Below are positions 4,873 to 25,753 of a DNA stretch of 51,144 nucleotides, one piece after another (position 1 is the first letter of the stretch; every line of letters begins with the position of its first letter). The DNA comes from Nanobdellota archaeon. Its GTDB lineage: Archaea > Nanobdellota > Nanobdellia > Woesearchaeales > WJIZ01. The notes beneath the pieces were generated by a model, which saw only the letters and a list, made by a program, of their open reading frames with translations, made no database searches and was not told where the DNA came from. Location of the stretch: positions 1 to 51,144 of the forward strand of contig JAGLMD010000057.1 in NCBI GenBank assembly GCA_023140175.1. The letters run 5' to 3'. The position numbers and the translations under genes are program-made.

Positions 4873-4874
4873 AT

Positions 4875-5426
4875 ATGAAAAAAATGGAAGAAAAAATTTT
4901 TATTGCAGGATATGGTGGGCAAGGAGTTGTTCTGGCAGGAAATATACTGGCATATGCAGCTTTAAAAGAAGACAAGAATATACTGGGGATGGTTTCTTAT
5001 GGCGCAGAAGTGCGTGGAGGAGCATCAAACAGCTCTGTAATTATATCAGATGACGAAATTGACTGTCCTATAATCGAAGAAGCAGAAATAGCCATTATTC
5101 TTAGCCAGGAATCCTATGATAAATTCCAGTCAAAAGTAAAGAAAAATGGTTTTTTGTTCTTAAATTCCTCAAAAGTCAACATTGACAAAAAAAGAGAAGA
5201 CATAACAATAGTTGAGATACCCGCAACAAAAATAGCCGCTGAAATGGGTAATGTACGGGTAGCTAATCTGGTACTTGTCGGTGCTTTGATAGAAAAAACA
5301 AAGATTCTTAAGAAAGAAAGCGTCATTTCAGCATTAAACATAATATTTTCAGGTGCCAGAAAGAATTTGGTATACATCAATGAATGTGCTGTTAAAAAAG
5401 GGATAGAACTTGCGGCCAATAATTAA
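4875..5426 (+). CDS. 2-oxoacid:ferredoxin oxidoreductase gamma subunit
   Basis: AGYGGQGV, SYGAEVRGG, ANLVLVGA motifs. Confidence 0.88.
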   Translation: MKKMEEKIFIAGYGGQGVVLAGNILAYAALKEDKNILGMVSYGAEVRGGASNSSVIISDDEIDCPIIEEAEIAIILSQESYDKFQSKVKKNGFLFLNSSKVNIDKKREDITIVEIPATKIAAEMGNVRVANLVLVGALIEKTKILKKESVISALNIIFSGARKNLVYINECAVKKGIELAANN

Positions 5427-5452: not shown

Positions 5453-6580
5453 ATGTACATAAAAGGAGTAGGTATGACAAAGTTCGGAATTTCAGATAAA
5501 TTCTCGCATCAGCTGGCTTACGAAGCCACATTAAAAGCATTAAATGATGCTGATATGAATTTCAATGAAATAGATGCTGTTGTTTGTTCTTCATTGGAAT
5601 GGTTCTTCTCAGTTGAGAAGCAGAGGCATTTTGCAAGCATGCTCTCTTCAATGTTCAAGACAAATAAGCCCATAGTAAGGGTTCCTGCAGCGTGCGGCGG
5701 CAGCGGTGCAGCTTTGTGGTTTGCTAATCAGCTTGAATTCAATAATATTCTTGTTGTTGGCGCAGAAAAGCTCATGACTGGTAATTCAGAAGCAATTACA
5801 GATGAGTTTATGATGGCTGCTGAAAGCAAATGGGAGCAGACCCAAGGACTTATTTTTCCAGGGCAGAACGCTTTAGTTGCCCAGGAATATATGCTGAAAT
5901 ACCCGGAAACAACAACAGAGCATCTGGCTTTGATAGCATATAAGAATCATTCAAACGCACTGCTTAATCCTTATGCAAGATTTTACAAAACAGAAATTTC
6001 CTTAGATAAGATAAGAAACTCTCCTGTTGTTTGTTCTCCTTTAAGGCTTTTTGATTGCTCAATCTCAGCAGATGGAGCATCCGCAGCCATAATATCAAAA
6101 GACAAGACAGATATAAATATAATTGGCTCAGATCTCTCCACAGATTATCTGCCCACATTCGAAAGAGATGATAACACTTCATGGGATGCATCAACAATAA
6201 CTGCAAAAAATGCATATAAGCAGGCAGGAATAGGACCCTCAGATGTCGATGTCGCAGAGCTTCATGATGCCTTCACTAGTGTGGAATTGATAGCATACGA
6301 GGATCTAGGCTTTGCAGAAAAAGGCAAAGCCTATAAAAAAATAGAAGACGGCTACTTTAACTTAGACGGCAAATTGCCCATAAATACTTCAGGCGGCCTT
6401 AAAGCAAAAGGCCATCCAGTCTCAGCCACTGGCTTATCACAAATATATGAGTTAGTGAAACATTTAAGAAATGAAACAGGTGCCAGGCAGGTTCCTAATG
6501 CAAAGATAGGGTTAGCACAGAATATAGGCGGGGCAGGAGGCACAGTTTCTTGTCACTTATTAAGAAAAATAGGGGGTTAA
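5453..6580 (+). CDS. Archaeal/SCP2-type thiolase, copy 2
   Basis: ACGGSG active-site Cys, GAEKL, ELHDAF, SGGLKAKGHP, QNIGG; paralog of 608..1750. Confidence 0.9.
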   Translation: MYIKGVGMTKFGISDKFSHQLAYEATLKALNDADMNFNEIDAVVCSSLEWFFSVEKQRHFASMLSSMFKTNKPIVRVPAACGGSGAALWFANQLEFNNILVVGAEKLMTGNSEAITDEFMMAAESKWEQTQGLIFPGQNALVAQEYMLKYPETTTEHLALIAYKNHSNALLNPYARFYKTEISLDKIRNSPVVCSPLRLFDCSISADGASAAIISKDKTDINIIGSDLSTDYLPTFERDDNTSWDASTITAKNAYKQAGIGPSDVDVAELHDAFTSVELIAYEDLGFAEKGKAYKKIEDGYFNLDGKLPINTSGGLKAKGHPVSATGLSQIYELVKHLRNETGARQVPNAKIGLAQNIGGAGGTVSCHLLRKIGG

Positions 6581-6587
6581 GATAAAA

Positions 6588-7328
6588 ATGTCGTTTAAAG
6601 GAAAAAATGCGTTAATAACAGGTTCAGCTCGTGGTTTAGGAAAAGAAATGGCCATGGCCCTTGCAAGAGAAGGCAGCAATATCATCATCAATGATATCGA
6701 GCCTATGAAAGAAGAAGCATTAAAGACAGTCGAAGAAATAAAAAAACTGGGTGTAGAATCAGAATTTATTGCAGCAGATGTCTCTGATTTTGAGTCCTGT
6801 AAAAAAATGGCAGATGCCATAAAAGAAAAGTTCAAAGAAGTTCACATCCTTGTGAATAATGCAGGCATAACAAAAGACCGGACATTAAAAAAAATGTCAC
6901 CAGAAGAATGGTATCCTGTTATTAATGTGAATCTTAACTCTTTGTTCAATGTCACGAGAAATGTCCTTGAAATGATTCCGGATGAAGGCAGGATAATAAA
7001 TATAAGCTCTTTAGCTGGCATTTCTGGTAATTTTGGCCAGACAAACTATGCTAGTACAAAAGCAGGCGTTATCGGCTTCACTAAATCATTGGCAAAAGAA
7101 GTCGGAAAGAGAAAGATAACTGTAAATGCAGTTGCACCAGGCTTTATTAAATCGGCGATGACAGACAAAATACCATTAGAACTTTTGTCCAACATCTTGC
7201 AGCTTATTCCACTAAGAGAAATAGGCCAGCCAGAAGACGTTGCAAACGCAGTAAAATTCCTTGCCTCAGATGAAGCAAAATATGTGTCTGGAACAGTGAT
7301 AAAAGTGGACGGCGGAGTCAGTTTTTAA
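6588..7328 (+). CDS. fabG: 3-oxoacyl-thioester reductase (FabG/PhaB-like SDR)
   Basis: TGSARGLG, VNNAGITKD, GNFGQTNYASTKAG, VAPGFI. Confidence 0.9.
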   Translation: MSFKGKNALITGSARGLGKEMAMALAREGSNIIINDIEPMKEEALKTVEEIKKLGVESEFIAADVSDFESCKKMADAIKEKFKEVHILVNNAGITKDRTLKKMSPEEWYPVINVNLNSLFNVTRNVLEMIPDEGRIINISSLAGISGNFGQTNYASTKAGVIGFTKSLAKEVGKRKITVNAVAPGFIKSAMTDKIPLELLSNILQLIPLREIGQPEDVANAVKFLASDEAKYVSGTVIKVDGGVSF

Positions 7329-7369: not shown

Positions 7370-7639
7370 TTATAGTGGAAAAAATAAATATTTATGTTCT
7401 TTATAGAATAACATGTATTTGTAATTTCTAATTATGTCAGCAAATTGTTTCTTTATTTCTTCTAAAAAATTTCTTAAATCTTGGATTGTTTTGATCTGAA
7501 CTTCTATTTCAATATCATCTCCTCCCAAAATTTCATTATCATAAGTTACGTTAAGATGTTGTCTTAGGTAAGATCTAAACTGTTTTTCTTTTTCTTCAAT
7601 TAAATTATGGAGATTAAAGTGGATTTTGATTATAATCAT
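7370..7639 (-). pseudogene. C-terminal fragment of an Lrp/AsnC-type regulator
   Basis: Resembles ligand-binding domain (ILGGDDIEIEV...LRNFLEEIKKQFADII..Y); no HTH, 5' part missing next to the TA/IS scar. Confidence 0.55.
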
Positions 7640-7756
7640 TTTTCCAGCCGCTTACTGTAGAAGGAGCTAAAATTTCGCTTTCTAAGTGTGCACATTTAGG
7701 GGTTCACTCCAAAGAACTAAAAATATTATTCCTAAACTCAATAACTTCATAGTAAT

Positions 7757-8131
7757 TCACTTCTTCTTGTATCCAAAAATCTTATCATATTTCTTATGAT
7801 CCATGAATTCCAGAACAAAAGCAATTATCTTGACTTCATCTCCAGAGATTGTATAAATCATTCTCCAATAGCCTACTAAATCAACTTTCCATAGTCTATC
7901 AGTTCCATAGCGATTAACAATAGCCTTAGAGACATTTCTTCTAGGAATGTGTATTCCATATTGAGGTTCAATTTTGATATTGTCCTTTTCTCTATCAATT
8001 GATTTTAGCAATTGCATATTAGATGAATTCTCAATACCCTGTCCCTTTTCTTGCAAGACTTTCTTCTGTAATTCCCTATAGTCGTTGTTAGCATCTTCAG
8101 AAAATTCCACCCATATTTCTTTGTTATGCAT
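7757..8131 (-). CDS. RelE/ParE-like toxin
   Basis: VEFSEDA start, LWKVDLVGYWRMIYTI, DHKKYDKIFGY tail; abuts upstream small DNA-binding gene. Confidence 0.65.
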   Translation of the reverse strand: MHNKEIWVEFSEDANNDYRELQKKVLQEKGQGIENSSNMQLLKSIDREKDNIKIEPQYGIHIPRRNVSKAIVNRYGTDRLWKVDLVGYWRMIYTISGDEVKIIAFVLEFMDHKKYDKIFGYKKK

Positions 8132-8404
8132 TTATGCCACCCTAACTGCATTCTTTAACAAATCCTTTAATTTTGGACTAGGATTATTAACCCAGGTTAT
8201 GCCTCTTGAACCAATTATAATTTTACCGCTATTTTCCAAATACTCCAAAATTAAATTTAAAGTCTGATGCATAATCTGAGTAGGGAGTCTTCTTTTTAAT
8301 TCTGCTTTAGATACCACTGTATCTGATTCTTGTATAATCTTCTCAACAATTAAAACAGTCCTTAGATTGGGGTAATGTAAAATTTGATTTTGCATTTTTC
8401 TCAC
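8132..8404 (-). CDS. Winged-helix protein, putative antitoxin
   Basis: PNLRTVLIVE...LKRRLP..IMHQTLNLILEYLE.SGKI wHTH-like pattern; immediately upstream of toxin; start may be a few codons downstream. Confidence 0.65.
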   Translation of the reverse strand: MRKMQNQILHYPNLRTVLIVEKIIQESDTVVSKAELKRRLPTQIMHQTLNLILEYLENSGKIIIGSRGITWVNNPSPKLKDLLKNAVRVA

Positions 8405-8997: not shown

Positions 8998-10152
8998 ATG
9001 GACTTTAACTTCACTAAAAAACAACACCTGCTAAAGCAGACTATAGATGAATTCTGTGAAAAAGAGATAGTTCCATATGCAGATGATATTGACCATGAGC
9101 AGATATTCCCGGAAAAGCAGATAAAACTTCTTTCAAAGATGGGCATAATGGGTATGTCTATTCCAAAAGAATATGGCGGCGCGGAATTAGATAATGTTTC
9201 CCAGACAATAATAATGGAAGCAGTCTCAAAAGCCTGCGCCTCTACCTCTGTAACCATGGGTGCTCATACTTCATTAACTTGCTTTCCATTGGTTGCTTAT
9301 GGCACAAAGGACCAGAAACAAAGATTTCTTCCAAAGCTTGCATCTGGCGAATATCTGGGAGCATTCGCTCTTACAGAGCCAAACGCAGGCTCAGACGCAT
9401 CTAATGTAGAAACAACAGCTGTAAAAGACGGCGATGAATATATCATAAACGGCTCAAAGATATTCATAACTAACGGTGGTAAAGCAGATTTAATAAATAT
9501 AGTAGCTACAACAGACAAATCAAAAAAGCACCACGGCATATCAATCTTCACAGTAGAAACAAAAAAGGCAAAAGGATTTGAGATTGGCAAAAAAGAAGAC
9601 AAATTAGGCCTGAGAGGCTCAAATACCAACGAGATAATATTCAAAGATATGCGCCTTCCCAAAGAAAACCTTGTCGGCGGCATAGAAGGGATGGGTTTCA
9701 AGATAGCTATGGGTGTATTTGATTCAGGAAGAATTGGCATAGGTGTTCAGGGAGTAGGTATTGCTCAGGCAGCTTTTGATAAGGCTTTGCAGTATGTCAA
9801 TGAAAGAGAACAATTCGGAAGAAAACTTGCTAAATTCCAGGCAATGCAATTCTATTTAGCAGATATGGCAACAAGGATAGAGGCAGCCAGGTTGCTTTGT
9901 TATAAAGCAGCTTTCATAAAAGATCAAAAGAAAAAATATGCCCAGGTTGCAGCCATGGCCAAGCTTTATGGCTCTGAAGTTGCAATGTATTGTTCAAGGC
10001 TTTCTTTGCAGATTCATGGCGGTTACGGATTCATAAAAGATTATCCATTAGAAAGATTCTATAGAGATGCAAAAATAACAGAAATATATGAAGGGACATC
10101 AGAGATAATGAAGCTGGTTATAGCTGCCAATTTATTGGGAAAGGGATTCTAA
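8998..10152 (+). CDS. bcd: Short-chain acyl-CoA dehydrogenase (butyryl-CoA dehydrogenase-like)
   Basis: FALTEPNAGSDA, NGSKIFITNG, REQFG, QIHGGYG, IYEGTSE catalytic Glu. Confidence 0.92.
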   Translation: MDFNFTKKQHLLKQTIDEFCEKEIVPYADDIDHEQIFPEKQIKLLSKMGIMGMSIPKEYGGAELDNVSQTIIMEAVSKACASTSVTMGAHTSLTCFPLVAYGTKDQKQRFLPKLASGEYLGAFALTEPNAGSDASNVETTAVKDGDEYIINGSKIFITNGGKADLINIVATTDKSKKHHGISIFTVETKKAKGFEIGKKEDKLGLRGSNTNEIIFKDMRLPKENLVGGIEGMGFKIAMGVFDSGRIGIGVQGVGIAQAAFDKALQYVNEREQFGRKLAKFQAMQFYLADMATRIEAARLLCYKAAFIKDQKKKYAQVAAMAKLYGSEVAMYCSRLSLQIHGGYGFIKDYPLERFYRDAKITEIYEGTSEIMKLVIAANLLGKGF

Positions 10153-10932
10153 ATGAAAATAGTAGTATGTATGAAACAAGTACCAGATACAAATGAGATT
10201 AAGATAGATCAAAAAACAGGCACCTTGCAGAGAGAAGGCGTTCCTTCGATCATGAACCCAGAAGATAAGCATGCTTTATTAGCAGCATTAAATATAAAAG
10301 ACGCAGAAGTAATTGCACTATCAATGGGCCCACCTCAAGCTGAGATGATCTTAAGAGAAGCCCTTGCATACGGAGCAAACAAAGCCATCTTATTATGCGA
10401 TTTTGCCTTCGCAGGCTCAGACACAGCCGCAACATCATATACATTATCTAAAGCAATTGAAAAAATAAATCCAGATTTAATAGTATGTGGAAGACAGGCC
10501 ATTGATGGCGACACAGCGCAAGTAGGCCCGCAAATAGCCGAACTCCTGAATTTACCCCAAGCAACCTATGTTCAAAAGATAATAAAACTGGATAATGAAA
10601 AAGTAGAAATCCAGAAAGAAACAGAAATAGGCTATGATATAATGGAGCTAAATCTGCCGGCATTAATAACCTGTACCAATGACATATCAGAGATTGATTA
10701 TCCAAGCTTGCAGGGAATAAGCAAAGCATTCGAAGAAAACATAGAAACATGGAAAGCCACAGACTTGAAAGCAGATAAAGAAAGGCTTGGATTAAATGGT
10801 TCCCCTACCTGGGTAAACAAATCATTCACTCCCACTCATCAAAGACAAGGCAATATCCTTAAAGGCAATGTCAAGGAATTAGCTAAACAATTGGCAAAAG
10901 AATTCATCAGAAAAGAAATTGTAAAGGAATAA
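10153..10932 (+). CDS. etfB: Electron transfer flavoprotein beta subunit
   Basis: KQVPDT, SMGPPQA, FAGSDT.AT, GRQAIDGDTAQVG, GL.GSPT.V. Confidence 0.93.
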   Translation: MKIVVCMKQVPDTNEIKIDQKTGTLQREGVPSIMNPEDKHALLAALNIKDAEVIALSMGPPQAEMILREALAYGANKAILLCDFAFAGSDTAATSYTLSKAIEKINPDLIVCGRQAIDGDTAQVGPQIAELLNLPQATYVQKIIKLDNEKVEIQKETEIGYDIMELNLPALITCTNDISEIDYPSLQGISKAFEENIETWKATDLKADKERLGLNGSPTWVNKSFTPTHQRQGNILKGNVKELAKQLAKEFIRKEIVKE

Positions 10933-10933
10933 A

Positions 10934-12094
10934 ATGAAAATAAAATTATCAATAAATTACCCCTCTTCAGAGCTTCATATAGGCAATGGTATATTAATAA
11001 ATAAGGAATCTGATTGGTTAGAAGTCGAGGAAACCAAAGAAATCAAAGAAGCAATAGAAAAAGGATTTCTTGAATATGAAGGCAAATTAGAAAAAAAAGA
11101 AGAAAAAAAGGAAAAATCAGATAAAGATGAAATATGGATCTTCGCAGAAGCATTACATGGAAAATTAGCAAGGGTTGTTCTCGAATTATTGGGCAAGGGA
11201 AAAGAGCTTGCAGATTCCCTTAATGTTAAGTTATCTGTAATATTATTGACAGATAAGGACAATTATTCAAAAGAGCTGATTAGCTATGGCGCAGATAAAG
11301 TATATATTCTGGAAAATCCTCTTCTTAAAAACTATGATACTAACTTATTCGCAAAAGTAATTACAGAAGCAATAAAAAATTATGCACCCCAAATAGTTCT
11401 TTACGGCGCTACCCATATTGGCCGTGATCTAGCTCCAAGAATAGCAAGAAGACTTGATACTGGCTTGACAGCAGACTGTACTGGCTTAGATATAACTGAG
11501 AATAATGAGCTATTACAGACCCGGCCGGCTTTCGGTGGTAATCTGATGGCACAGATTTTGTGTAAAAAAAGGCCGCAGATGTCAACTGTCAGGCCAGGCG
11601 TTATGCAGATCATTCCTCAAGATAAAGACAAGAAAGGAGAAATAATCAAACTTGAAATAAAAATTTCTGAATCCGACTTAAGTACAAGATTAAAAGAATC
11701 AGTGAAATCTGCAAAAAAAGTAATTAACCTTGAAGAAGCAGAAATTATTGTATCAGGCGGCCGTGGTCTCTCATCACAAGAGAACTTCCATAAGCTCATA
11801 CCAGCATTTGCAAAAGTCCTTAATGCAGAAATAGGTTCATCAAGGGCAGCTGTTGATGCGGGCTGGATAGAAAAACCGCACCAGGTAGGTCAGACAGGAA
11901 AGACAGTAAGGCCAAAAGTCTATATTGCCTGCGGAATAAGTGGGGCAATACAGCATCGTGCAGGAATGCAGGATTCAGATTTAATCATAGCAATAAATAA
12001 AGATCCATCTGCACCAATATTCAAGATTGCAGATTATGGTTTCGTAGCTGACATAAATGAGTTTATCCCGGCATTCATAGAATCATTGAAATAA
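10934..12094 (+). CDS. etfA: Electron transfer flavoprotein alpha subunit with N-terminal extension
   Basis: GLTADCT, TRPAFGGN, QVGQTGKTVRP, GISGAIQH, INKD..APIF. Confidence 0.93.
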   Translation: MKIKLSINYPSSELHIGNGILINKESDWLEVEETKEIKEAIEKGFLEYEGKLEKKEEKKEKSDKDEIWIFAEALHGKLARVVLELLGKGKELADSLNVKLSVILLTDKDNYSKELISYGADKVYILENPLLKNYDTNLFAKVITEAIKNYAPQIVLYGATHIGRDLAPRIARRLDTGLTADCTGLDITENNELLQTRPAFGGNLMAQILCKKRPQMSTVRPGVMQIIPQDKDKKGEIIKLEIKISESDLSTRLKESVKSAKKVINLEEAEIIVSGGRGLSSQENFHKLIPAFAKVLNAEIGSSRAAVDAGWIEKPHQVGQTGKTVRPKVYIACGISGAIQHRAGMQDSDLIIAINKDPSAPIFKIADYGFVADINEFIPAFIESLK

Positions 12095-12096
12095 AA

Positions 12097-12756
12097 ATGG
12101 CATATCCTTTTGCAAAAATTTTTCTTGGTAGTTTTATAAGGTTATACATGCGAAAGACAACAGGCATAGAGAATATTCCAAAAAACAAAGCATATATCGT
12201 AGCTCCAAACCATTCAAGCTATGCTGATGATCTTATTGCACCATATACTATGATAGCATATGGAAAAAAGAAGCTGCATATTTTTGTTAACTCAAGATTC
12301 TACAAAAATTTTTTTTTAATAAAATTACTGGATCATTTCGGCTGCATCAGGGTTGATGTAAGCAAAGATGTAAAAGACGAAGAAAAAAGAAAAAAGACAA
12401 ATGAAAAAGCATTTAAGATTGCCCTGGAAGGCCTTAAAAATGGTGATATTCTCATTATATTTCCAGAAGGAGGAAGAAGCCAAAACGGAAAATTGAAAAA
12501 AGCAAAAACAGGGATTGCTAAAGCAGCACTGGCTGCAAAGGTGCCTGTTCTGCCAATGGGTATAAAAGGTTCATATGAAATTATGCCAAAAGGCGCAAAA
12601 CTCCCTAAATTTAAGAAGGCAGATATTATAATCGGCAAGCCGATGTATTTTGATAAATATTATGGAAAAGAGAAAGATTATAAAACACTCGAGACAGTTA
12701 CCACATTGATCATGAAGGAAATCGCAAAGTTAACAAATCAGGATTATAATTATTAA
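12097..12756 (+). CDS. plsC: PlsC-family lysophospholipid acyltransferase, copy 1
   Basis: NHSSYAD (HX4D) and FPEGGRS motifs. Confidence 0.88.
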   Translation: MAYPFAKIFLGSFIRLYMRKTTGIENIPKNKAYIVAPNHSSYADDLIAPYTMIAYGKKKLHIFVNSRFYKNFFLIKLLDHFGCIRVDVSKDVKDEEKRKKTNEKAFKIALEGLKNGDILIIFPEGGRSQNGKLKKAKTGIAKAALAAKVPVLPMGIKGSYEIMPKGAKLPKFKKADIIIGKPMYFDKYYGKEKDYKTLETVTTLIMKEIAKLTNQDYNY

Positions 12757-12757
12757 A

Positions 12758-13399
12758 ATGGCATACCAAATAACAAGCAGGGTTATTTCACTTCTAATTA
12801 AGCCATGGACAGGGCTGTGTACAGGAATCCATAATATACCTGCTGATAAAGGTGTTATCCTTGCTGCAAACCATTCATCTTATCTTGACCATTTTATCGT
12901 AGGCTGTAGTATCTTTCTAAACCTGAATAAAGCTGCATATTATCTTGCTAAGAAAGAGCACTTTGATACATTTTTCCAAAGAAAATGGCATCAATTCCTG
13001 CCAGCCATACCTATAGATAGGGAAACATGCGGCAGAGAAGCATTATCAAAAGCAGTAGAACATCTCAAGAAAGGGAATTTAATTATGATATATCCAGAGG
13101 GAACAAGAACCATTACAGGTAAGATGAATCGTGCTAAAACAGGAGTAGCAAGATTAGCATTAGCCGCAAAAGCCCCGGTAATACCCATGGGTATTACAAA
13201 TACCTTCAAAATTTGGCCCAAGGAAAAAAAAATACCCAGATTTGGAAAGAAAGCAGATTTAAATATAGGAAATCCGCTTTATTTCGATAAATACTATGGA
13301 AAAGATGATGACAAAAAAGCATTGAGAAAAGTAACAACACTAATAATGAATGAAATAGCAAAACTTTCGCATCAAAAATATGAATTCGATCAGGAATAA
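12758..13399 (+). CDS. plsC: PlsC-family lysophospholipid acyltransferase, copy 2
   Basis: NHSSYLD (HX4D) and YPEGTRT motifs. Confidence 0.88.
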   Translation: MAYQITSRVISLLIKPWTGLCTGIHNIPADKGVILAANHSSYLDHFIVGCSIFLNLNKAAYYLAKKEHFDTFFQRKWHQFLPAIPIDRETCGREALSKAVEHLKKGNLIMIYPEGTRTITGKMNRAKTGVARLALAAKAPVIPMGITNTFKIWPKEKKIPRFGKKADLNIGNPLYFDKYYGKDDDKKALRKVTTLIMNEIAKLSHQKYEFDQE

Positions 13400-13404
13400 C
13401 TAAA

Positions 13405-14388
13405 ATGAAAATAGCAATCATTGGTGCAGGAAGCTGGGGCACAACCCTGGCAAATCTTTTGGCAGAAAACAATCCTGATAAAGAAGTTATTTTATGGGCC
13501 AGAGAAACAGAGGTTATAGATTCTATAGAAAATGAAAATGAAAATGAATTATTCTTACCAGGGATAAAACTCTCAGAAAACCTAAAATCAACCGCAGACT
13601 TAGAAAAAGCTGTTTCAGATGCAGATATATTAGTCACAGCGATTCCATCTCAGTTTCTAAGGGAAAAAGCCAAAGAAATAAACAAATATATTAAAGAAAA
13701 CTCTATAATAGTAAATGTAGCAAAGGGATTTGAAATTGATACTTTTAAGAGGATGTCTGAAATATTGAAGGAAGAGCTTCCTCCATCAATTAAAATTGCA
13801 GTTCTCTCCGGCCCAAATCATGCTGAAGAAGTTAGTAGAAAAATCCCAACAGCCACAGTAATAGCCTCAACAGAAACTGATTTAGAAAATCTCAGGAAGA
13901 TTTTTGAGACAGATTATTTCAAAGTATATGCCCATGATGATGTCATTGGCTTAGAAGTTTGTGCTGCAGTAAAGAACATTACTGCAATCGCAACAGGAGT
14001 TATTGCAGCTCTTGGTTTAGGTGATAATGCAACTGGTTCAATAATAACTCTTGGCCTAAGAGAAATGGTCAGATTAGGCAGGCACTTAGGCGCAAGACAG
14101 GAAACATTCTATGGTTTAGCAGGAGTGGGCGACTTAGTAGCTACATGCACATCCAAACTCTCAAGAAATAGAAAAGCAGGTAATTTAATCACAAAAGGCC
14201 TCGATGCTGAAGGAATAATGGAAGCTATGCATGGTATGGTAGCAGAAGGAATAATGACATCTAAGGCAGTCCATGAATATGCAGAAAAAAATAAACTCTA
14301 TTTACCATTGACAGCCCAGGTATATAGCGTTCTTTTTGAAAAAAAAGAATTAAACCAGGCAATAACTGACTTAAAAAAATTAATATAA
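13405..14388 (+). CDS. gpsA: NAD(P)H-dependent glycerol-3-phosphate dehydrogenase
   Basis: GAGSWGT, LSGPNHAEEV, KN..AIA.G, GLAGVGDLVATC.S..SRN, VAEG. Confidence 0.95.
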   Translation: MKIAIIGAGSWGTTLANLLAENNPDKEVILWARETEVIDSIENENENELFLPGIKLSENLKSTADLEKAVSDADILVTAIPSQFLREKAKEINKYIKENSIIVNVAKGFEIDTFKRMSEILKEELPPSIKIAVLSGPNHAEEVSRKIPTATVIASTETDLENLRKIFETDYFKVYAHDDVIGLEVCAAVKNITAIATGVIAALGLGDNATGSIITLGLREMVRLGRHLGARQETFYGLAGVGDLVATCTSKLSRNRKAGNLITKGLDAEGIMEAMHGMVAEGIMTSKAVHEYAEKNKLYLPLTAQVYSVLFEKKELNQAITDLKKLI

Positions 14389-14405: not shown

Positions 14406-15005
14406 TTATTCTTCTGTAAATTCATCTATGCTTTCTTTCAGTTCATCTTTCTGGTCTAATATTCCCCTATTTCTCAGATATTCCCTGGCCAATAACCAGA
14501 AAAATAATCCAAGGCTCTTCTTTCCTTTATTGTTGCATGGCACAACAAGATCAATATAATTTGACTGGTTGTTTGTATCACAAAGCGCGATAACAGGAAT
14601 CCCAATCTTATTAGCATCTTTTATTGCATTTCTGTCTGGCCACGAATCAGTAATTAATAGGACTCTAGCCTCAACAAAATTCTTAAGTTCAGGGTTAGTC
14701 AATATTCCTGGGGGGTATCTTCCTGCAAAAACCCTTGTTCCTGTAGATTTTGAAAAAGCCTTGACAGATTTCCAGGAATTTTCTCTTCTGGATACTATCA
14801 GTATTTCTTCTGGCTTGTACTTTCCAAGTAAATTTGCTGCTATCCTTATTCTCTCATCAATCTTTTGCAGATTCAGGACAGACAATCCATCAGGCCTTGT
14901 TTTGTATATGAAGTCTGCCATATACTTTGTCTTGAATTTTGTGCCTATATGTATGCCTGATTTTAAATATCCTTCCTGCGATATTAAAAACTGTGCTTCT
15001 GTCAT
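14406..15005 (-). CDS. rps2: 30S ribosomal protein uS2, archaeal type
   Basis: YLKSGIHIGTK, RPDGL, GRYPPGILTNP, IPVIALCDTNN, PCNNKGKKS; GAGGAGG SD. Confidence 0.96.
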   Translation of the reverse strand: MTEAQFLISQEGYLKSGIHIGTKFKTKYMADFIYKTRPDGLSVLNLQKIDERIRIAANLLGKYKPEEILIVSRRENSWKSVKAFSKSTGTRVFAGRYPPGILTNPELKNFVEARVLLITDSWPDRNAIKDANKIGIPVIALCDTNNQSNYIDLVVPCNNKGKKSLGLFFWLLAREYLRNRGILDQKDELKESIDEFTEE

Positions 15006-16327: not shown

Positions 16328-17464
16328 ATGGTTAATTACAGAATAGCAAAAATACCAGGTGATGGGATAGGCCCAGAAATAATAATAGAAGGTGTTAAAG
16401 TACTCGAAAAAGCATCTGAATTAAATAATTTTGAAATTGACTGGATCAAATATGATAATGGGGCAGAGAAATATCTTAAAACAGGAGAATTAATAACAGA
16501 AGATACTCTGAAGGAGATAAAAACTACCTGCAAATCAATTTACCTGGGCGCCTTAGGCGATCCCAGATGCAGGCCGGGAATCCTTGAAAAGGGAATTCTT
16601 CTTAAAACAAGATTTTACTTTGATCAATATGTAAATTTAAGGCCGATAAAACTGCTTGAGGGCGTATGGTGTCCTCTCAAAGACAAAACACCCAAAGATA
16701 TAGACTTCACAGTAGTCAGGGAAAACACAGAGGATTTTTACGTGGGAATAGGTAATAGGGCTAAAAAAGGAAGCTCAAAACAGGAACTTGAGGTGGTAAG
16801 GTCAATCTACCATGCAAAATTTAGTTTAGATATAGAAACTGATGATGATGAAATTGCATACCAAATCGGAGTTATGAGCAAAAAAGGTGCCCGGAGAGTA
16901 ATAAAATACGGCTTTGAATTAGCAAAAAAGGAAAATGTTGGCACAGCATACTTTGTAGATAAGGCAAATGTCCTTTCAGATATATATGGTTTCTGGCGTG
17001 AGAATATTGAAGATATTTCAAAATCTTACCCAAATATTAAGCCGGAATATATGTTTGTTGATGCCATAACAATGTGGTTTGTAAAAAATCCTGAGTGGTT
17101 CAAGGTGGTTACAACACCTAATATGTTTGGTGATATTATAACTGACCTGGGTGCAATGATTCAGGGAGGTCTTGGCTTAGCTCCAGGCGGAAATATCAAT
17201 CCGGGCGGCATTTCAATGTTTGAGCCAATTCACGGGTCAGCTCCGAAATATAAGGGCATGAATGTTGCGAATCCGTTAGCCACAATATGGGCAGGAGCAA
17301 TGATGCTTGATGAAATAGGCCAGCAAAAGGCTGCTGAGCAGATTATAAATGCTATTCAGGAGATATTAAAAGAAGGAAAAGTAAAGACAAAAGACTTGGG
17401 CGGCACTAATTCAACATCCGAGGTAGGGGATGCTGTTGTCAAGAAGATTGAAGATATGCAGTAA
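16328..17464 (+). CDS. leuB: Isopropylmalate/isocitrate/tartrate dehydrogenase family (probable LeuB)
   Basis: [36 protein letters not shown]. Confidence 0.75.
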
Positions 17465-17498
17465 TTTTATAAAATATAATAATATAAAAGGTGAGAAT

Positions 17499-18500
17499 AT
17501 GGTAAATATATTACATGATAAGGATGCAGATTTATCTGCGTTAGATAGCAAGACTATTGCAGTTATTGGCTATGGCAGCCAAGGCAGTGCACAAGCACAG
17601 ATGATGAAAGATTCGGGTATTAGTGTTATTATTGGCGAAACAGAAGTCCTTGGAGATAAGCCAAATCCAAGCTGGAATAAAGCAAAAGAAGATGGATTTG
17701 AAGTTATGGCCATAAGCGATGCAGCAGAAAAAGCAGACGTTATTCACATGCTGCTTCCAGATGAATTTCACAGGCCAGTATATAAAGAGCAGGTTGAAAA
17801 ACATATGAAAGCCGGCAAAACCTTAAGTTGCTCTCATGGTTTCAATATTGTATATAAACAGATAGTTCCACCTGAAGAAGTAGATGTTATTATGGTTGCT
17901 CCAAAAGCTCCAGCTACAGAAGAGCTTAAAGCATACAAAGCAGGTTTTGGTGTTCCTGGTTTAATAGCAATAAAAAAAGATGCTTCCGGGAAAGCAAGAG
18001 ATATTGCTCTGGCAATGGCAAAAGCTATGCGTTTCACAAGAGCAGGTGTCTTGGAATGTACTTTCGAGCAGGAGACATACGAAGATCTATTTGGAGAACA
18101 GAATGTTCTTTGCGGCGGAACAGTAGACCTGGTAAAATATGGCTTTGAGGTATTGACAGAAGCAGGCTATCCTCCTGAAATGGCTTATTTTGAATGCCTT
18201 CACGAATTGAAGCTTATTGTAGACCTTATTTACGAAGGCGGCATTCAGAAGATGAATGCAGTTATCTCAAACACAGCAGAATTCGGTGAATATTACAACG
18301 GCCCCAGGATTATAGGGCCGGAAGTAAAGGAAAAGATGAAAGAATCCTTAAAAAGGATTGAAGACGGTTCTTTTGCTAAAGATTGGCTGGAAGAGAGCAG
18401 AAACGGCGCACCAAATCTCCTTGCAAAGAGAAAAGCATTGGGGGATCACCCAATAGAGATTGTCGGAAGAAAGATTAGGGCGTTGTTTGAGAAAAAATAA
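17499..18500 (+). CDS. ilvC: Ketol-acid reductoisomerase
   Basis: IGYGSQG, SHGFNI, MVAPK.P, ET.EDLFGEQ.VLCGG, AYFECLHELKLIVDL; GGTGAG SD supports ATG at 17499. Confidence 0.95.
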   Translation: MVNILHDKDADLSALDSKTIAVIGYGSQGSAQAQMMKDSGISVIIGETEVLGDKPNPSWNKAKEDGFEVMAISDAAEKADVIHMLLPDEFHRPVYKEQVEKHMKAGKTLSCSHGFNIVYKQIVPPEEVDVIMVAPKAPATEELKAYKAGFGVPGLIAIKKDASGKARDIALAMAKAMRFTRAGVLECTFEQETYEDLFGEQNVLCGGTVDLVKYGFEVLTEAGYPPEMAYFECLHELKLIVDLIYEGGIQKMNAVISNTAEFGEYYNGPRIIGPEVKEKMKESLKRIEDGSFAKDWLEESRNGAPNLLAKRKALGDHPIEIVGRKIRALFEKK

Positions 18501-18585
18501 GAAGGCGCAATTCTTCTTTAATTTCTTACTTCTTTCTATTCTAAAATAATTAAATTTAAATAAAATTTAATTCTTAGCTTTAATC

Positions 18586-19218
18586 ATGCCAATCCCATCT
18601 TTCCTCAAAATCCCACCGACAAAAATAATAGCCATAGGCTTAAACTATAAAACCCACGCCAAAGAACTTAACATGCCTATTCCTAAATCTCCTATTCTTT
18701 TCATGAAGCCAGTCTCATCAATTATAGGCCCAGAAGAAGACATAATCCTTCCAGAAATGTCAAAAAGAGTTGATTATGAAGCAGAACTTGCCTTCATAAT
18801 AAAGAAAAAGGCAAAAAATATAGAAGAAGAAAATGCTTTAGAGTATATTGAAGGATTCACATGCTTAAATGATGTTACAGCAAGAGATTTGCAGAATCTG
18901 GATGGTCAATGGACAAGAGCAAAATCCTTTGATACTTTCTGTCCAATAGGCCCAAAATTAGTAGACACAGATAAACTAGATCCGAACAATCTGAAAATTC
19001 AGCTTTACCTTAATGGAGAATTAAAACAGGATTCATCAACAAAAGAATTTATTTTCAAAATAGAAGAAATACTTTCATTTATCTCAAAGATAATGACCTT
19101 AAACCCAGGAGACATAATAACAACAGGCACTCCTTCAGGTATTGGTCCTATGCATTCAGGTGATACAGTAGAAGTGAGGATAGAAAAGATAGGCGAACTA
19201 AAGAATTATGTAAAATAA
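18586..19218 (+). CDS. Fumarylacetoacetate hydrolase family protein
   Basis: IGLNY..HA.E, DYEAEL, NDVTARD, KSFDTFCPIGP, TGTPSG. Confidence 0.92.
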   Translation: MPIPSFLKIPPTKIIAIGLNYKTHAKELNMPIPKSPILFMKPVSSIIGPEEDIILPEMSKRVDYEAELAFIIKKKAKNIEEENALEYIEGFTCLNDVTARDLQNLDGQWTRAKSFDTFCPIGPKLVDTDKLDPNNLKIQLYLNGELKQDSSTKEFIFKIEEILSFISKIMTLNPGDIITTGTPSGIGPMHSGDTVEVRIEKIGELKNYVK

Positions 19219-19281
19219 GCTATTATTATATAATAAGAAACTATAAAAATCAACTAACACTCCTCTCTTTCTGGTATTACT

Positions 19282-20475
19282 ATGTATAAGTTTATACAAG
19301 CATTTGATTATCAAAAAACAATTGGAATAAATGGAAGAAAAAGGATAGTAAGCCCGCTTACTGAACTTACTCCTCAAGCCGAGCCAGCATTGCTTCGTGA
19401 GTGTACTTCATATCTAGCTAAATATATAAAACCCAGCCATAAGATATTAACAGAAGAACATGGAGCAGGCCATATTGCAGGTGCACTTTCTTATTTAAAT
19501 GGGAATGACCTTGCCATTGCAAGGTGGACTCCCGATGGATTGGCAAAAAGCTTAGAGCAATATTTCAGCAAAGGTGCTATGTATAGGGGGGGTAATCTGA
19601 TCCTTCATGGTGTCCAGCCAGGAGATACTGTAGACATAATTGATGATGTAATGGACAAAGGAGAGACTTTAGAAACACTTATTAGCCTTGTCGAATCTCA
19701 CGGCGCAATTATCTCTGATATATATGTCATTGTAGAAAAGACATACAATGGAAGAAGCATAGGCAGAGAGAATTTGAAATCTAGAGGGCACAAAATAAAC
19801 TCTTTATTAGAAGTTGAAGTATCAGGAGAAATAAGTCATGTAACACAAGCCAATCTCCCTAGGACAATTCGTTATTTAGATAATCCTCAAATTGAATGGT
19901 CTGATAACCTTTTAGCTCGTTCTTACGAAAATCAGGAATTAATCGAACTTGAAAACCACATGCGCTTTATGCTGGTTCCACTTAGTGAACACTACCCTTT
20001 GACTTCAGCCCCCTTATTAAGGGAAACAGTTGACAAACTGTCTAGCTTAATGCCTGAAAATGTCGATAAGATAGTTGCAGAATTTGATAGGTGTGCACAT
20101 ATTCTAGGAGCTATTTCACTGCATACAAAATTACCAATAGGTGGGGCCAAATGGTTTCCAGGACCAATCAACTTAGGCAGTGATTTTAAAATGGAATATT
20201 ACGAAGGGAGATTATTTCCTTATGGGATTAACTCTGGAGATAAATGCTATCTCATAGATGATACAGTAAGCAGTGGTGGAACAATGGTGGGCTTTATCAA
20301 TCTTATAACTAAGATGGGTGCAAAAATTGTTGGTGCCGCAGCCGCAGTTGAAAAAGAAGAGTATAAAGGAATTCAGAGAATAAAGAAAGAAACTGGAATT
20401 GAAGTTGACAGGATTCTGGGAATTTCTATTGCCGGGCAAAAAACAAAAGTTATCTCAGATAGGTTCCGTGAATAA
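19282..20475 (+). CDS. Tandem two-domain type I phosphoribosyltransferase (purine PRT-like)
   Basis: Two PRPP-binding loops (IIDDVMDKGET, LIDDTVSSGGT), each followed by VEK. Confidence 0.75.
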   Translation: MYKFIQAFDYQKTIGINGRKRIVSPLTELTPQAEPALLRECTSYLAKYIKPSHKILTEEHGAGHIAGALSYLNGNDLAIARWTPDGLAKSLEQYFSKGAMYRGGNLILHGVQPGDTVDIIDDVMDKGETLETLISLVESHGAIISDIYVIVEKTYNGRSIGRENLKSRGHKINSLLEVEVSGEISHVTQANLPRTIRYLDNPQIEWSDNLLARSYENQELIELENHMRFMLVPLSEHYPLTSAPLLRETVDKLSSLMPENVDKIVAEFDRCAHILGAISLHTKLPIGGAKWFPGPINLGSDFKMEYYEGRLFPYGINSGDKCYLIDDTVSSGGTMVGFINLITKMGAKIVGAAAAVEKEEYKGIQRIKKETGIEVDRILGISIAGQKTKVISDRFRE

Positions 20476-20477
20476 AT

Positions 20478-21251
20478 TCACTTCACTCTTATCAACTCAG
20501 TCGGTTTTTCTCTATATGTCAGCATTGTCTTTAAATTTTGAAGATCCTTTCTTTCACGCAGCATAGAATTAAAAGTATTTAATGCAACATCAGGGGTATT
20601 ATTATTCAAACTCAGGTGAGAGAGCAAAACATATTGTAATTTTCTTTTTCCATGCTCCAGCACAAGCAGGCCCGCATCATAGTTGGACAAATGGCCTTTA
20701 TCACCCCCAATCCTCTTCTTCAGATAGTGAGGATAAGATCCATTTTTCAGCATATTAGTATCATGATTGGATTCAAGGATAACTAAATCAGATTCTGCCA
20801 CACTTTTGATGACATTATCACAGCTATATCCTATGTCTGTTATTATGCTTACTTTTTTGCCCTTGTTCTTTATCAAATAACTTACCGGGTCAGCCGCTTC
20901 ATGGCTTTTGGAAAATGGAAGTATCTTCAATCCATTTAAATTAATTTCTTCATCACTTTTTATCAGGTTCACATTACTCTTATCAAGATAACAATTCCTC
21001 AAAGTTCCTTTATTGATATAAACAGGAATATTATACTTTCTCGTCAACACATCTATCCCTCTTGTATGGTCTCCATGCTCATGCGTTACAAAAATTCCCT
21101 TTATATCTCTAATATCCTTGCCTATCTGTTCTAATCTTTGAGAAATCTGCTTGCAGCTTATCCCAGCATCGATCAATATATCTCCTTTATCACTTCCAAT
21201 ATAAAAGCAATTTCCAGAGCTTCCGGATGCAAGAACACTTACTTCGAACAT
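20478..21251 (-). CDS. MBL-fold metallohydrolase (YycJ/WalJ-like)
   Basis: LASGSSGN, THEHGDH, ESNHD, GHLSN, HLS..NN; true start probably MFEV at 21251. Confidence 0.9.
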   Translation of the reverse strand: MFEVSVLASGSSGNCFYIGSDKGDILIDAGISCKQISQRLEQIGKDIRDIKGIFVTHEHGDHTRGIDVLTRKYNIPVYINKGTLRNCYLDKSNVNLIKSDEEINLNGLKILPFSKSHEAADPVSYLIKNKGKKVSIITDIGYSCDNVIKSVAESDLVILESNHDTNMLKNGSYPHYLKKRIGGDKGHLSNYDAGLLVLEHGKRKLQYVLLSHLSLNNNTPDVALNTFNSMLRERKDLQNLKTMLTYREKPTELIRVK

Positions 21252-21488
21252 ATGTTTAATTCGGATACAATTTATTATTAAACTTAATGGTTTTTGTAAC
21301 TTCAAAAGCAATTTGCTCAAAAATTTGAATATAACGCTGAGAAGATGATTGAGTATTATTTTCCCCCTATCCGTTAGAGATATTGATTTGATTCCACTAT
21401 ACAACTACTTTGCGCCTGTTATGTTCTCCGAACGAAGTGGGGATTGATTTTTAGTGCAACACTCGGGCGAAGCCCGAAAAAATCAAAG

Positions 21489-21523
21489 TCGTCGTGTCTA
21501 TAGTTTTTTTTGGGGTTGTCGTC
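21489..21523. repeat. Left copy of bipartite inverted repeat flanking the serpin
   Basis: Reverse complement gacgacaacccc-N11-tagacacgacga matches 23004..23037. Confidence 0.55.
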
Positions 21524-21580
21524 TCCTTTTTCCCACTAAAAAAAGAAGAGAATTAAATAATATTTTTTAGGTGGGAATCT

Positions 21581-22858
21581 TTATTGTTGAGTCGGATCAC
21601 TCATTCTTCCTAAAAATAATATGTTTCCAGTTTCTTTTTCCTGAATGATAAATACAAATGGATGATCTGCCATGAACATGTTTGAGAATCCAGCTGATTT
21701 TTCTGCCATTATTACTGCAGTTGCAGCAGCAGCTTCTGTTCCTTCTTCATTAACTTCAACAAAAGCCTGATGGATTACTTGACTAATATAAAGTCTATCT
21801 GTTCCATCCATACCCGAGAAATCTGCAGCCATTGAAAAAGCAGTTGGCATACCCATCTGCTTTAAATCTTCTTTCATAAAGTATTTTGTTTCAAATTTGA
21901 ATTTAGGCATATGTACATCAATCTTTCTTTCTTGAAGTGAATTTCGCCATTCATTAAGTTTTTCAGGAGTAAGTGATTGTTCAAATTCGTCTAAGGTGCC
22001 TTCTCTTGGTAAAAGCACAAGCATAGATAATTCTTCACCTTTGTAAGGCATTTCAAGAATCTGAAGATTTTCTGTTTCTGCATAATTGAATTTTGCTTTT
22101 TCTCCTGTAAGGGTCATCATTTGTGCTTTTACATTTTTAGTAGGAATAACTTTAAAATCAGCTTCTCTAGTTTTCTTTTTGTCAAATTGTAATACCCAAT
22201 CTCCTTTGAAATATATAGCATTTGTTAAAACTAATCTTGTATCCGGCTTTATAACAGGAGGACTTTTTGGTAAAAGCTCTTTAATTTTATTATTGGTTTG
22301 TTCTTCAATAAATGCATTGATGGTTTGCCTTGATTTTTCTGTTTCTTTTTTAAAATCAAGATTTGCTACTTGTCCACCATAATATTGCCCAACTCTAGAG
22401 AAATATTCTTCAAGAAATTGGTAATCATATTGAGCCCATAAAGCATTGCCTGTCATCAATTTATAGGGCTTATCTTTTTTATTTATATTATTATAAATTG
22501 CTGCAGAATTTGGTCTTAATATGCCAAATTCAGGAAAATGAAAAACTGATTGCATTTCTTCAGCTGTTTGTCCTCTGGCTCCCTCATAAGTCATTGCTAA
22601 TGCTGTTGAAATACTATAGGGAGAAAAGAAAATATTTGAATCCTTATATTTAGGATCATCTTTATATTTTGAATATATATCAAAAGCAAATTGATTATTT
22701 GCACTTACAACTTGTTGAATCCCTTGTTGTGTTGAACCAGTATCATCTGTTTGTGGTGGTTGGTCTGGTTGATAGGGAAAAAGAAACAATATTGCTGTAG
22801 CAGTTACAATAGCTGCCATAAGAAGTGCTATTCCGATTGTTAAAAACTTTTTGTTCAT
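21581..22858 (-). CDS. Membrane-anchored/secreted serpin
   Basis: N-terminal hydrophobic segment; NIFFSPYSI, LVLTNAIYFKG.W, EEGTEAAAAT hinge, F.ADHPF, ILFLGR. Confidence 0.96.
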   Translation of the reverse strand: MNKKFLTIGIALLMAAIVTATAILFLFPYQPDQPPQTDDTGSTQQGIQQVVSANNQFAFDIYSKYKDDPKYKDSNIFFSPYSISTALAMTYEGARGQTAEEMQSVFHFPEFGILRPNSAAIYNNINKKDKPYKLMTGNALWAQYDYQFLEEYFSRVGQYYGGQVANLDFKKETEKSRQTINAFIEEQTNNKIKELLPKSPPVIKPDTRLVLTNAIYFKGDWVLQFDKKKTREADFKVIPTKNVKAQMMTLTGEKAKFNYAETENLQILEMPYKGEELSMLVLLPREGTLDEFEQSLTPEKLNEWRNSLQERKIDVHMPKFKFETKYFMKEDLKQMGMPTAFSMAADFSGMDGTDRLYISQVIHQAFVEVNEEGTEAAAATAVIMAEKSAGFSNMFMADHPFVFIIQEKETGNILFLGRMSDPTQQ

Positions 22859-23003
22859 ATAATAAAATAATAATTTAGCTAATATATAAATGTTTTTTTA
22901 GCTTCAAGTTGATTTGAAGTAAGTATTAATGTCAGGTGGGGAAAATATTATTTCTATTAATCTCAAAAATGAAGTTTTTGACTAAATATCCCGAAGGGAT
23001 GGC

Positions 23004-23037
23004 GACAACAACCCCCTTTAATAAATATACACAACGA
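23004..23037. repeat. Right copy of bipartite inverted repeat flanking the serpin
   Basis: gacaacaacccc-N10-tatacacaacga. Confidence 0.55.
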
Positions 23038-23167
23038 TTGAATATAATATTCGCTTAATCTTTACTTTTAAGTGCAATATCTTTGGGTTTATTGCAGATT
23101 ATCTTCATATACCTAAAATTCAATAATAATTTAAAGGAACATAAAATTCCCATACTGGGTGATTGTT

Positions 23168-24808: not shown

Positions 24809-24817
24809 ACATAAACA

Positions 24818-25696: not shown

Positions 25697-25753
25697 CTGT
25701 TACATAAAATATTTAAACAAAATTACATTTTTCACACTGAGATAAGGAGTAAG

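Follow-up and report, generated by a model that had tools for sequence, protein, structure and literature searches.

Introduction

How could an archaeon build the backbone of fatty-acid phospholipids when the canonical first acyltransferase is missing from its genome? Membrane lipids set archaea apart from bacteria (the 'lipid divide'), and the origin of bacterial-type lipids in eukaryotes is unresolved. The question is raised here by three genes in a stretch of 51,144 nucleotides, hereafter the window, which is contig C138 of the genome of a Woesearchaeal (DPANN) archaeon. Two of the genes encode paralogous acyltransferases of PF01553, the LPLAT/AGPAT-like glycerolipid acyltransferase superfamily: PlsC-a (12097..12756, + strand, 219 aa), a candidate acyl-coenzyme A (acyl-CoA):glycerol-3-phosphate (G3P) acyltransferase, and the canonical-looking PlsC-b (12758..13399, + strand, 213 aa), a candidate 1-acyl-G3P, or lysophosphatidic acid (LPA), acyltransferase. 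The third encodes GpsA, a NAD(P)H-dependent G3P dehydrogenase (13405..14388, + strand, 327 aa). Judged from gene content and sequence motifs, the three may form a phosphatidic-acid module that is independent of PlsB, PlsX and PlsY and is fed by acyl-CoA, in which PlsC-b would be the LPA acyltransferase and PlsC-a the G3P acyltransferase. We give this reading a probability of about one half.

Results

The original prediction, made from the window alone, placed two intact HX4D acyltransferases directly before gpsA, and three open reading frames (ORFs) with matches to PF01553 and GpsA lie exactly there. PlsC-a and PlsC-b match PF01553 at 88.2 and 96.1 bits (cut-off 23), while GpsA carries both of its Pfam domains (PF01210, 189.1 bits; PF07479, 170.9 bits) and exceeds the cut-off of NCBIfam NF000942 (388.9 versus 257 bits). 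The intergenic gaps measure 2 nt between EtfA, encoded by the preceding gene, and PlsC-a, 1 nt between PlsC-a and PlsC-b, and 5 nt between PlsC-b and GpsA. The host genome, of 2.07 Mb in 184 contigs, is 100% complete with 0.42% contamination according to marker genes, and a search of sequencing runs detected the DNA of the window in cold-seep metagenomes.

Two adjacent PF01553 genes were found in 7/7 genomes of the host's family and in two genomes from other families (G015 and G021); G008 has two adjacent weak PF01553 matches. Of 14 loci from at least three families of Woesearchaeales, 13 keep the gene order PlsC-a, PlsC-b, gpsA. It was found in 9/9 stretches of 20 kb, whose ORFs were labelled by BLASTP against the window proteins, and in four of five further loci (L036-L040), the exception being L040, where the second acyltransferase ORF is truncated. 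Such a recurrence is not due to chance. A single-protein search for related loci returned 17 loci, from close relatives only. The gene convergent with gpsA encodes a ribosomal protein uS2 of eukaryotic/archaeal type (14406..15005, - strand; TIGR01012, 247.2 bits, cut-off 211.5), and in 12 of the 14 loci the distance between uS2 and gpsA is no more than about 2 kb; the locus is therefore archaeal, and bacterial contamination was ruled out as the source of the contig. The named homologues and loci come from metagenome-assembled genomes (MAGs) designated 'Candidatus Woesearchaeota', 'Nanoarchaeota' and 'Nanoarchaeia'. Two contigs deposited under other names, 'Candidatus Nomurabacteria' (L039) and 'uncultured Methanosarcinales' (L037), carry the PlsC-a, PlsC-b, GpsA order; the former has the same archaeal uS2, the latter stops right after gpsA, and both are probably mis-binned.

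PlsC-a and PlsC-b are 42% identical end to end, and the similarity of their C-termini that had been noticed before is borne out, a YFDKYYGK...VTTLIM.EIAKL stretch being common to both. Neither protein reaches the cut-off of 102.95 bits of TIGR00530 (AGP_acyltrn), with 63.7 bits for PlsC-a and 82.3 for PlsC-b; PlsC-b has a weak match to the E. coli-type PlsC model NF011593, and in the NCBIfam search neither protein matched a PlsB model. NH-x4-D (H39..D44) and EGxR are present in both. Aligned together, 66 a-type and 67 b-type sequences have the His of HX4D in 66/66 and 67/67, respectively; within the H39-x4-D44 motif of PlsC-a (12211..12228, + strand), the Asp position holds Asp in 63/66 a-type sequences and Glu in 3/66. 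HX4D, P-E-G-x-R and the Pro-rich motif IV are common to the two groups, with P-E-G and R invariant in each. The b group keeps, invariant or nearly so, L-A-K-K-E-H-F, W-H, P-(I/L)-D-R-x-x-G-G and Y-P-E-G-T-R-T, whereas the a group has F-V-N-S-R-F-Y and F-P-E-G-(G/A)-R-S instead.

The most distinctive difference concerns motif II, which in the nomenclature reportedly due to Lewin et al. 1999 is defined by ...(I/L)-D-R. A mostly charged insert of 4-15 residues stands exactly between the Asp and the Arg of this motif in 66/66 a-type and 0/67 b-type sequences; in PlsC-a the alignments place it at residues 88-97 (VSKDVKDEEK; 12358..12387, + strand). The motif II Asp and Arg themselves are retained in 67/67 b-type sequences but in only 34/66 and 35/66 of the a-type, and mean column identity is 59% in the b group versus 50% in the a group. 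PlsC-a and PlsC-b are two old orthologous groups, both under constraint, and a putative division of labour fits the remodelling of one paralog at the acceptor-side motif II.

The two groups also separate in a maximum-likelihood tree of 72 rows, which comprised nine a and nine b sequences, two other homologues from the order, one in three database homologues of both group alignments, six sequences from L036, L038 and L039, and seven bacterial rows; L037, L040, multidomain bacterial proteins and the remaining two-thirds of those database homologues did not enter the tree. Here a (31 rows) and b (32 rows) form the two sides of a branch with 100/98 support, and a lone homologue from G018 groups within b. 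The two groups together are sister to two Actinomycetota PlsC-like proteins of unassigned function (98/83), with support of only 92/49 for a and b as a unit. With few bacterial rows sampled, a single acquisition followed by duplication within the archaeal lineage is the most likely origin of the pair. The hidden Markov model (HMM) of the a group gives the higher score for 115 of 120 listed PlsC-a homologues, that of the b group for the other five.

Paired domains of this family are seen in other genomes as well. An uncultured Bacilli MAG (L046, 8944-10117) has two adjacent small PF01553 genes of 194 and 201 aa that belong to a related bacterial clade. Five proteins (P0245, P0258, P0283, P0262 and P0250), of 436-872 aa, carry two or three PF01553 domains of this subfamily per chain, and the named multi-PF01553 fusions belong to two MAGs, one of Patescibacteria and one of Promethearchaeota; their arrangement hints that such domains may often work in pairs. 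A further patescibacterial protein of 437 aa (P0272), deposited as a HAD-IB family hydrolase, has an acyltransferase domain in its first 205 residues and is probably a fusion, and L038 (7626-8297) and L039 (4887-5558) have a HAD-IB hydrolase gene immediately upstream of PlsC-a. Plant sn-2 G3P acyltransferases (GPATs) carry a phosphatase domain, and the probable HAD-IB/acyltransferase fusion recalls those enzymes.

None of the usual enzymes of the first acylation was found in the host genome. Profile searches gave 0 matches to PlsY (PF02660), 0 to PlsX (PF02504) and no PF01553 gene beyond PlsC-a and PlsC-b, both of about 215 aa, and the a- and b-group HMMs, run with --max on 11,084 six-frame ORFs of the genome, detected nothing else below E = 0.1. 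PlsB proteins are large (about 800 aa) and built around a PF01553 core, and since no PF01553 gene exists besides the pair, there is no PlsB. Neither an acyl carrier protein (ACP; PF00550) nor a ketoacyl synthase (PF00109) was found in the genome, so that acyl-CoA is plausibly the donor. Control genomes were detected in the PlsY, PlsX, PF01553, ACP and ketoacyl synthase searches. The absence of PlsB, PlsX and PlsY proposed in the original prediction therefore extends from the window to the genome, and the idea of an acyltransferase pair survives the search that could have overturned it. PlsY exceeded its cut-off in 1/41 genomes of the order and in 0/9 of those with the pair. The sole AMP-binding enzyme of the host genome is encoded by an open frame of ~690 aa, a length that we take to fit acetyl-CoA synthetase (ACS).

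The characteristic archaeal enzymes GGGPS and G1PDH were not found in the host genome either. Two PcrB matches were examined as GGGPS candidates and rejected, one being a HisA-like protein (His_biosynth, 175.7 bits; HisA equivalog models below their cut-offs) and the other HisF (293.2 bits; hisF model above its cut-off), and the Fe-ADH_2 match, a candidate for G1PDH, proved to be AroB (TIGR01357, 381 bits). A credible GGGPS is present in 0/41 genomes of the order, where the PcrB matches are all partial and none exceeds 25.1 bits; the same 41 genomes contain PF01553 in 29 cases, GpsA in 20 and CarS in 22.

AlphaFold2 (AF2) models, with mean confidence (pLDDT) of 92.6 for PlsC-a and 90.3 for PlsC-b, give both paralogs the alpha/beta fold of solved PF01553 members. 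Each model has one short N-terminal helix and both proteins share a C-terminal helix; in PlsC-a the insert is predicted to be a loop running into an elongated helix (95-114). The best Foldseek match of both is TmPlsC of Thermotoga maritima (5KYM), with E 2.7e-10 and a query TM-score (TMq) of 0.68 for PlsC-a, and E 1.5e-11 and TMq 0.69 for PlsC-b, followed by plant and human GPATs at E 1e-6 to 1e-9. Squash GPAT aligns with TMq 0.69 for PlsC-a versus 0.58-0.62 for PlsC-b, a slight difference that decides nothing. In a sequence search of the PDB, 5KYM was the sole significant match (E 1.2e-14 and 1.7e-13 for the two proteins).

The original prediction also spoke of a 'minimal three-gene module'. 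The phosphatidic-acid part of this claim is partly supported, but the three genes turn out to be the end of a larger conserved fatty-acid cluster. Upstream of them on the + strand stand genes for a FabZ-like dehydratase (86-586; NF000582, 132.8 bits, cut-off 113), an archaeal-type thiolase (608-1750), a DUF362 protein (1766-2893), a VorB-type 2-oxoacid:ferredoxin oxidoreductase of three genes (3066-5426; VorB NF005507, 537.7 bits, cut-off 399), a second archaeal-type thiolase (5453-6580), a FabG-like ketoreductase (6588-7328; TIGR01830, 299.4 bits, cut-off 297.75) and, according to Pfam and NCBIfam, a Bcd/AcrC-like acyl-CoA dehydrogenase (8998-10152), EtfB (10153-10932) and EtfA (10934-12094). 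The last three, tightly packed with the plsC genes, are a candidate enoyl-CoA reductase system. In most loci the pair has the FabZ-like, thiolase, DUF362, thiolase and FabG-like genes as neighbours, and the Bcd-like dehydrogenase, EtfB and EtfA are directly upstream of PlsC-a in 5/14 (the window, L024, L030, L036 and L037, the contig of L037 holding only EtfA of this set). Given that the genome has no ACP and no ketoacyl synthase, we read the cluster as a CoA-bound, thiolase-driven route of chain building, which the FabG/FabZ-type chemistry, resembling that of fatty-acid synthases (FAS), supports. Flux would presumably run in this direction, and the 2-oxoacid oxidoreductase may supply branched primers.

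Three small ORFs of 89, 124 and 90 aa without family matches (7370..8404, - strand) interrupt the cluster. No counterpart was found between FabG and the next cluster gene in the loci of relatives, and the three could represent a short inserted segment, perhaps a toxin-antitoxin or mobile cassette. In some relatives the FabG-like protein is longer (563-572 aa; L028 11466-13157, L031 4540-6252 and L038 13058-14776). In L028 and L031, the two on which Pfam was run, it is a fusion of a methyltransferase with a short-chain dehydrogenase/reductase (SDR) of the ketoreductase (KR) kind; G003 has a separate methyltransferase at the position of the fusion, and L031 also has a family III CoA-transferase. 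The fusions suggest that the chains may be methyl-branched or otherwise modified.

Genes for later steps lie on another host contig (C161, 15731-17376; L008 and L009), where a CarS-family cytidylyltransferase (PF01864, 126.5 bits; NF003114 equivalog, 156.5 bits, cut-off 148) is encoded next to a PgsA-like protein of 363 aa. The latter has two CDP-alcohol phosphatidyltransferase domains (TIGR00560, 233 bits, cut-off 109) and a weaker match to ClsA-type cardiolipin synthase, and its presence beside CarS implies that steps after phosphatidic acid exist.

HMG-CoA reductase was found in 0/9 genomes with the pair. The 'no isoprenoids' reading of this absence was overturned by a methylerythritol phosphate (MEP) cluster on host contig C112 (92-8759; L057), which encodes IspG, a ferredoxin, DXR, a fused IspD-IspF, a fused GHMP-kinase (IspE-like)-IspH (544 aa) and a polyprenyl synthase. 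It represents a bacterial MEP pathway in an archaeon, in agreement with Castelle et al. 2021, and IspG is present in 9/9 genomes with the pair versus 5/32 others. Two UbiA prenyltransferases were found in the host genome, one of them weakly DGGGPS-like (82 bits, cut-off 269). The gene of the DGGGPS-like protein adjoins that of a radical SAM/SPASM protein of 436 aa (contig C8, 9328-11584; L058); matches to a bacterial membrane-spanning-lipid synthase (Mss) are reported for Woesearchaeia (PMC11868695).

Because the MEP pathway, a polyprenyl synthase, two UbiA proteins and CarS coexist in the genome, mixed ester/ether lipids on a G3P backbone have to be considered. These could arise by UbiA-type prenylation with a MEP-derived polyprenyl diphosphate combined with acylation, or by PlsC acylation of ether lysolipids, CarS activating the product. 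The clustering of the polyprenyl synthase with the MEP genes, the association of IspG with the pair, the DGGGPS-like UbiA and the score of CarS above its equivalog cut-off all point this way, as does the report that CarS activity depends on geranylgeranyl chains and not on stereochemistry or on ether or ester linkage (PMC4244643). However, there is no GGGPS-type enzyme for the first ether bond, the UbiA genes are unlinked to the plsC locus, the polyprenyl synthase may serve glycosyl carriers or quinones, and no mixed lipids are known from these organisms, all of which makes this explanation highly improbable.

No tRNA genes were found in the window, and a promoter/terminator scan returned 35 sites against 29 expected, with a bacterial consensus applied to an archaeal host. 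The window also encodes a full-length serpin of 425 aa (21581-22858, - strand; PF00079, 401 bits), here in a DPANN archaeon, and a protein of 1479 aa with PQQ/BamB-like beta-propeller repeats (42133-46572, + strand), perhaps a large surface protein. The Bro-N domain, common in viruses and mobile elements, occurs in two proteins, one in the window (29989-30564, - strand) and one on contig C112 (10525-11373). A tryptophan operon (32837-39593) with a fused TrpG-TrpD (540 aa) and a fused TrpC-TrpF (458 aa), together with branched-chain amino-acid genes (16328-26662), gives the organism a biosynthetic capacity unusually broad for a DPANN genome, and its 2.07 Mb compare with 1.1-1.5 Mb in relatives.

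Discussion

In the pathway that we propose, GpsA would convert dihydroxyacetone phosphate to sn-glycerol-3-phosphate, and the thiolases, the FabG-like reductase, the FabZ-like dehydratase and Bcd-EtfAB as the enoyl-CoA reductase would supply acyl-CoA. PlsC-a, with the catalytic HX4D and EGxR kept and the acceptor side rebuilt, would acylate G3P itself, and PlsC-b, which keeps every canonical LPA-acyltransferase motif, would acylate 1-acyl-G3P. Following an old duplication within the archaeal lineage, two PlsC-family enzymes would divide both acylations between them, and the three genes would constitute the terminal part of a fatty-acid-to-phosphatidic-acid pathway that operates without PlsB, PlsX/PlsY and ACP. 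Our direct observations concern gene content and how well it is conserved, the distribution of the motifs, the modelled folds and the lack of the usual enzymes; from these we infer the substrates, the order and the regiochemistry of the two acylations, and the direction of the upstream cluster. The earlier suggestion that one paralog acylates G3P from acyl-CoA gains from the lack of PlsB, PlsX, PlsY and ACP and from the remodelling of one paralog at motif II, and loses from the disappearance of canonical phosphate-binding residues in PlsC-a. As these residues were lost, not gained, the designation of PlsC-a as the G3P enzyme is one that we infer.

Several points weigh against the phosphatidic-acid module. 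Residues invariant in PlsC-b are replaced in PlsC-a (K65 by N, H68 by F and H78 by L), and given the loss of residues expected to bind phosphate, the acceptor of PlsC-a may not be G3P. The Foldseek and PDB searches do not distinguish a GPAT-like from an LPA acyltransferase-like paralog, and PlsC-a is no nearer to known GPATs than PlsC-b. CdsA was not detected in the host genome, only CarS, and since characterised CarS enzymes are described as taking geranylgeranyl-chain substrates and not phosphatidic acid (PMC4244643), the step after phosphatidic acid is unexplained. GpsA could instead supply G3P as the head-group substrate of the PgsA-like enzyme, and the upstream cluster could run degradatively or fermentatively. 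In a MAG of 184 contigs, absences are not proof, and no RNA sequencing runs containing the DNA of the window were listed. Moreover, in several genomes of the order GpsA occurs alongside just one PF01553 gene and PlsY is absent, which implies that one enzyme may be enough.

Part of this evidence would suit salvage or remodelling, whereby lysolipids or whole lipids are obtained from a host or the environment, both acyltransferases act on lysophospholipids with different acceptor or acyl preferences (a Lands-cycle pair), and GpsA mainly feeds the PgsA-like enzyme. DPANN archaea are generally held to be unable to make lipid building blocks and to depend on hosts (PMC11868695, PMC5059525); the first of these studies, from 2025, still takes them to be incapable of such synthesis and regards modification of host lipids as probable. 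The order retains CarS in 22 of 41 genomes yet has no credible GGGPS, which suggests the recycling of acquired lipids, and the two-domain PgsA-like protein requires G3P; an enzyme without the canonical phosphate-binding residues, such as PlsC-a, would also be at home in this scheme. On the other hand, gpsA is tightly packed with both acyltransferase genes in 13 of 14 loci, next to a complete-looking acyl-CoA-forming set that salvage alone would not need, and no long-chain acyl-CoA ligase for scavenged fatty acids is evident, the single AMP-binding gene being of ACS size. We consider salvage or remodelling rather unlikely.

The genomes with GpsA, one PF01553 gene and no PlsY bring up another possibility, that PlsC-b is bifunctional and carries out both acylations of G3P, leaving to PlsC-a a different one (e.g. 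of a lyso-head-group lipid or of diacylglycerol, or the addition of a third acyl chain). A precedent exists in PlsM, which accepts both G3P and LPA (PMC10593935). The stronger conservation of the b group, the placement of the lone G018 homologue within it and the relaxed motif II of the a group are in line with such an arrangement. PlsC-a nevertheless stands beside PlsC-b and gpsA in 7/7 genomes of family f1, and a-type sequences abound in metagenomes (115/120 listed homologues), which argues for a core and not an accessory role, and the cluster offers no candidate pathway for another acceptor. We regard a bifunctional PlsC-b as an unlikely explanation.

The proposed module, in which each paralog would take one acylation, resembles several known systems in part. 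TmPlsC reportedly has a two-helix membrane anchor, which is without a match in either archaeal model. It belongs to the same Pfam family and has the same fold, with HX4D, EGxR and the Pro-rich motif IV, and shares the motif II Asp-Arg with PlsC-b; both archaeal proteins, however, start about 45 residues later (query 21-22 versus chain 66-67), share a C-terminal helix and, in PlsC-a, have the motif II insert, and acyl-ACP cannot be the donor in the host. Within the eukaryotic and plastid Kennedy pathway (squash GPAT, 1K30/1IUQ; human GPAT1, 8E4Y), a GPAT and an LPA acyltransferase perform both acylations within one superfamily, as proposed here; yet these GPATs are much larger (357-651 residues in the matched chains) and only 14-18% identical, and the match of PlsC-a is not decisively better than that of PlsC-b.

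The mycobacterial enzyme PlsM is a PlsC-type protein of 247 aa that acylates G3P and LPA with acyl-CoA (Angala et al. 2023, PMC10593935). As described there, the PlsM/PlsB2 pathway likewise does without PlsX and PlsY, employs a small PlsC-type enzyme that lacks a transmembrane domain, and divides the two positions between two acyltransferases. Mycobacteria differ in that they still have PlsB-type enzymes (PlsB2, 789 aa), of which the host genome has none, and the likeness to PlsM lies in general features (size, no transmembrane segment, HX4D). For the upstream cluster, the closest parallel is the ACP-independent FAS demonstrated in Sulfolobus acidocaldarius (Schmerling et al. 2024 preprint, 10.1101/2024.07.05.601840), where CoA-bound intermediates are used and a ketothiolase, an SDR ketoacyl-CoA reductase, a dehydratase and an enoyl-CoA reductase replace FAS-II. 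That complex is organised by a DUF35 protein, whereas DUF35 (PF01796) was found in 0/9 genomes with the pair; here DUF362, a FabZ-type dehydratase and, in part of the genomes, Bcd-EtfAB are present instead. The text of the preprint does not refer to DPANN, PlsC, acyltransferase or phospholipid.

Elements of this gene content have been published before. GpsA is reported in Woesearchaeota and G1PDH is said to be absent from DPANN (Yokobori 2016, PMC5059525); PlsC and PlsY homologues in DPANN bins were taken as transfers from Bacteria, with no genome containing all homologues (Coleman 2019, PMC6431249); and Woesearchaeota MEP genes were located near bacterial fatty-acid synthesis genes, including a G3P dehydrogenase (Castelle 2021, PMC8204110). 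As far as the available parts of these three DPANN lipid surveys go, the missing first-step enzyme is not raised as a problem and a thiolase-based cluster is not mentioned. In the literature available, we found no account of a split of PlsC into two orthologous groups, of an insert in motif II or of this cluster layout, although Supplementary Table 4 of Castelle 2021 may list the genes. It has also been reported that LPA of either stereo-form is a substrate for the PlsC enzymes of E. coli and B. subtilis (PMC13400652). PlsC-family enzymes for both acylations are known from mycobacteria and eukaryotes; in this archaeon they would take a minimal form, with two gene copies linked to a fatty-acid cluster that works without ACP.

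Our results indicate that a complete-looking gene set for the fatty-acid phospholipid backbone is kept as one locus across a Woesearchaeal family, with the canonical first acyltransferase missing. We suggest, tentatively, that this family may make fatty-acid ester phospholipids on G3P de novo by a self-contained, ACP-free route, combining thiolase-based chain building, a PlsC copy as a new minimal (~215 aa) G3P acyltransferase and a CarS switched to phosphatidic acid, which would put it on the bacterial side of the lipid divide or give it a mixed membrane. Both PlsC-a and PlsC-b are small and soluble-looking, so that their expression for testing should be easy. If a PlsC paralog is indeed the missing G3P acyltransferase, it would be smaller than any enzyme known to have this function, would show a two-step pathway arising from one transferred gene by duplication, and would make bacterial-type lipid synthesis by an archaeon open to a direct test.

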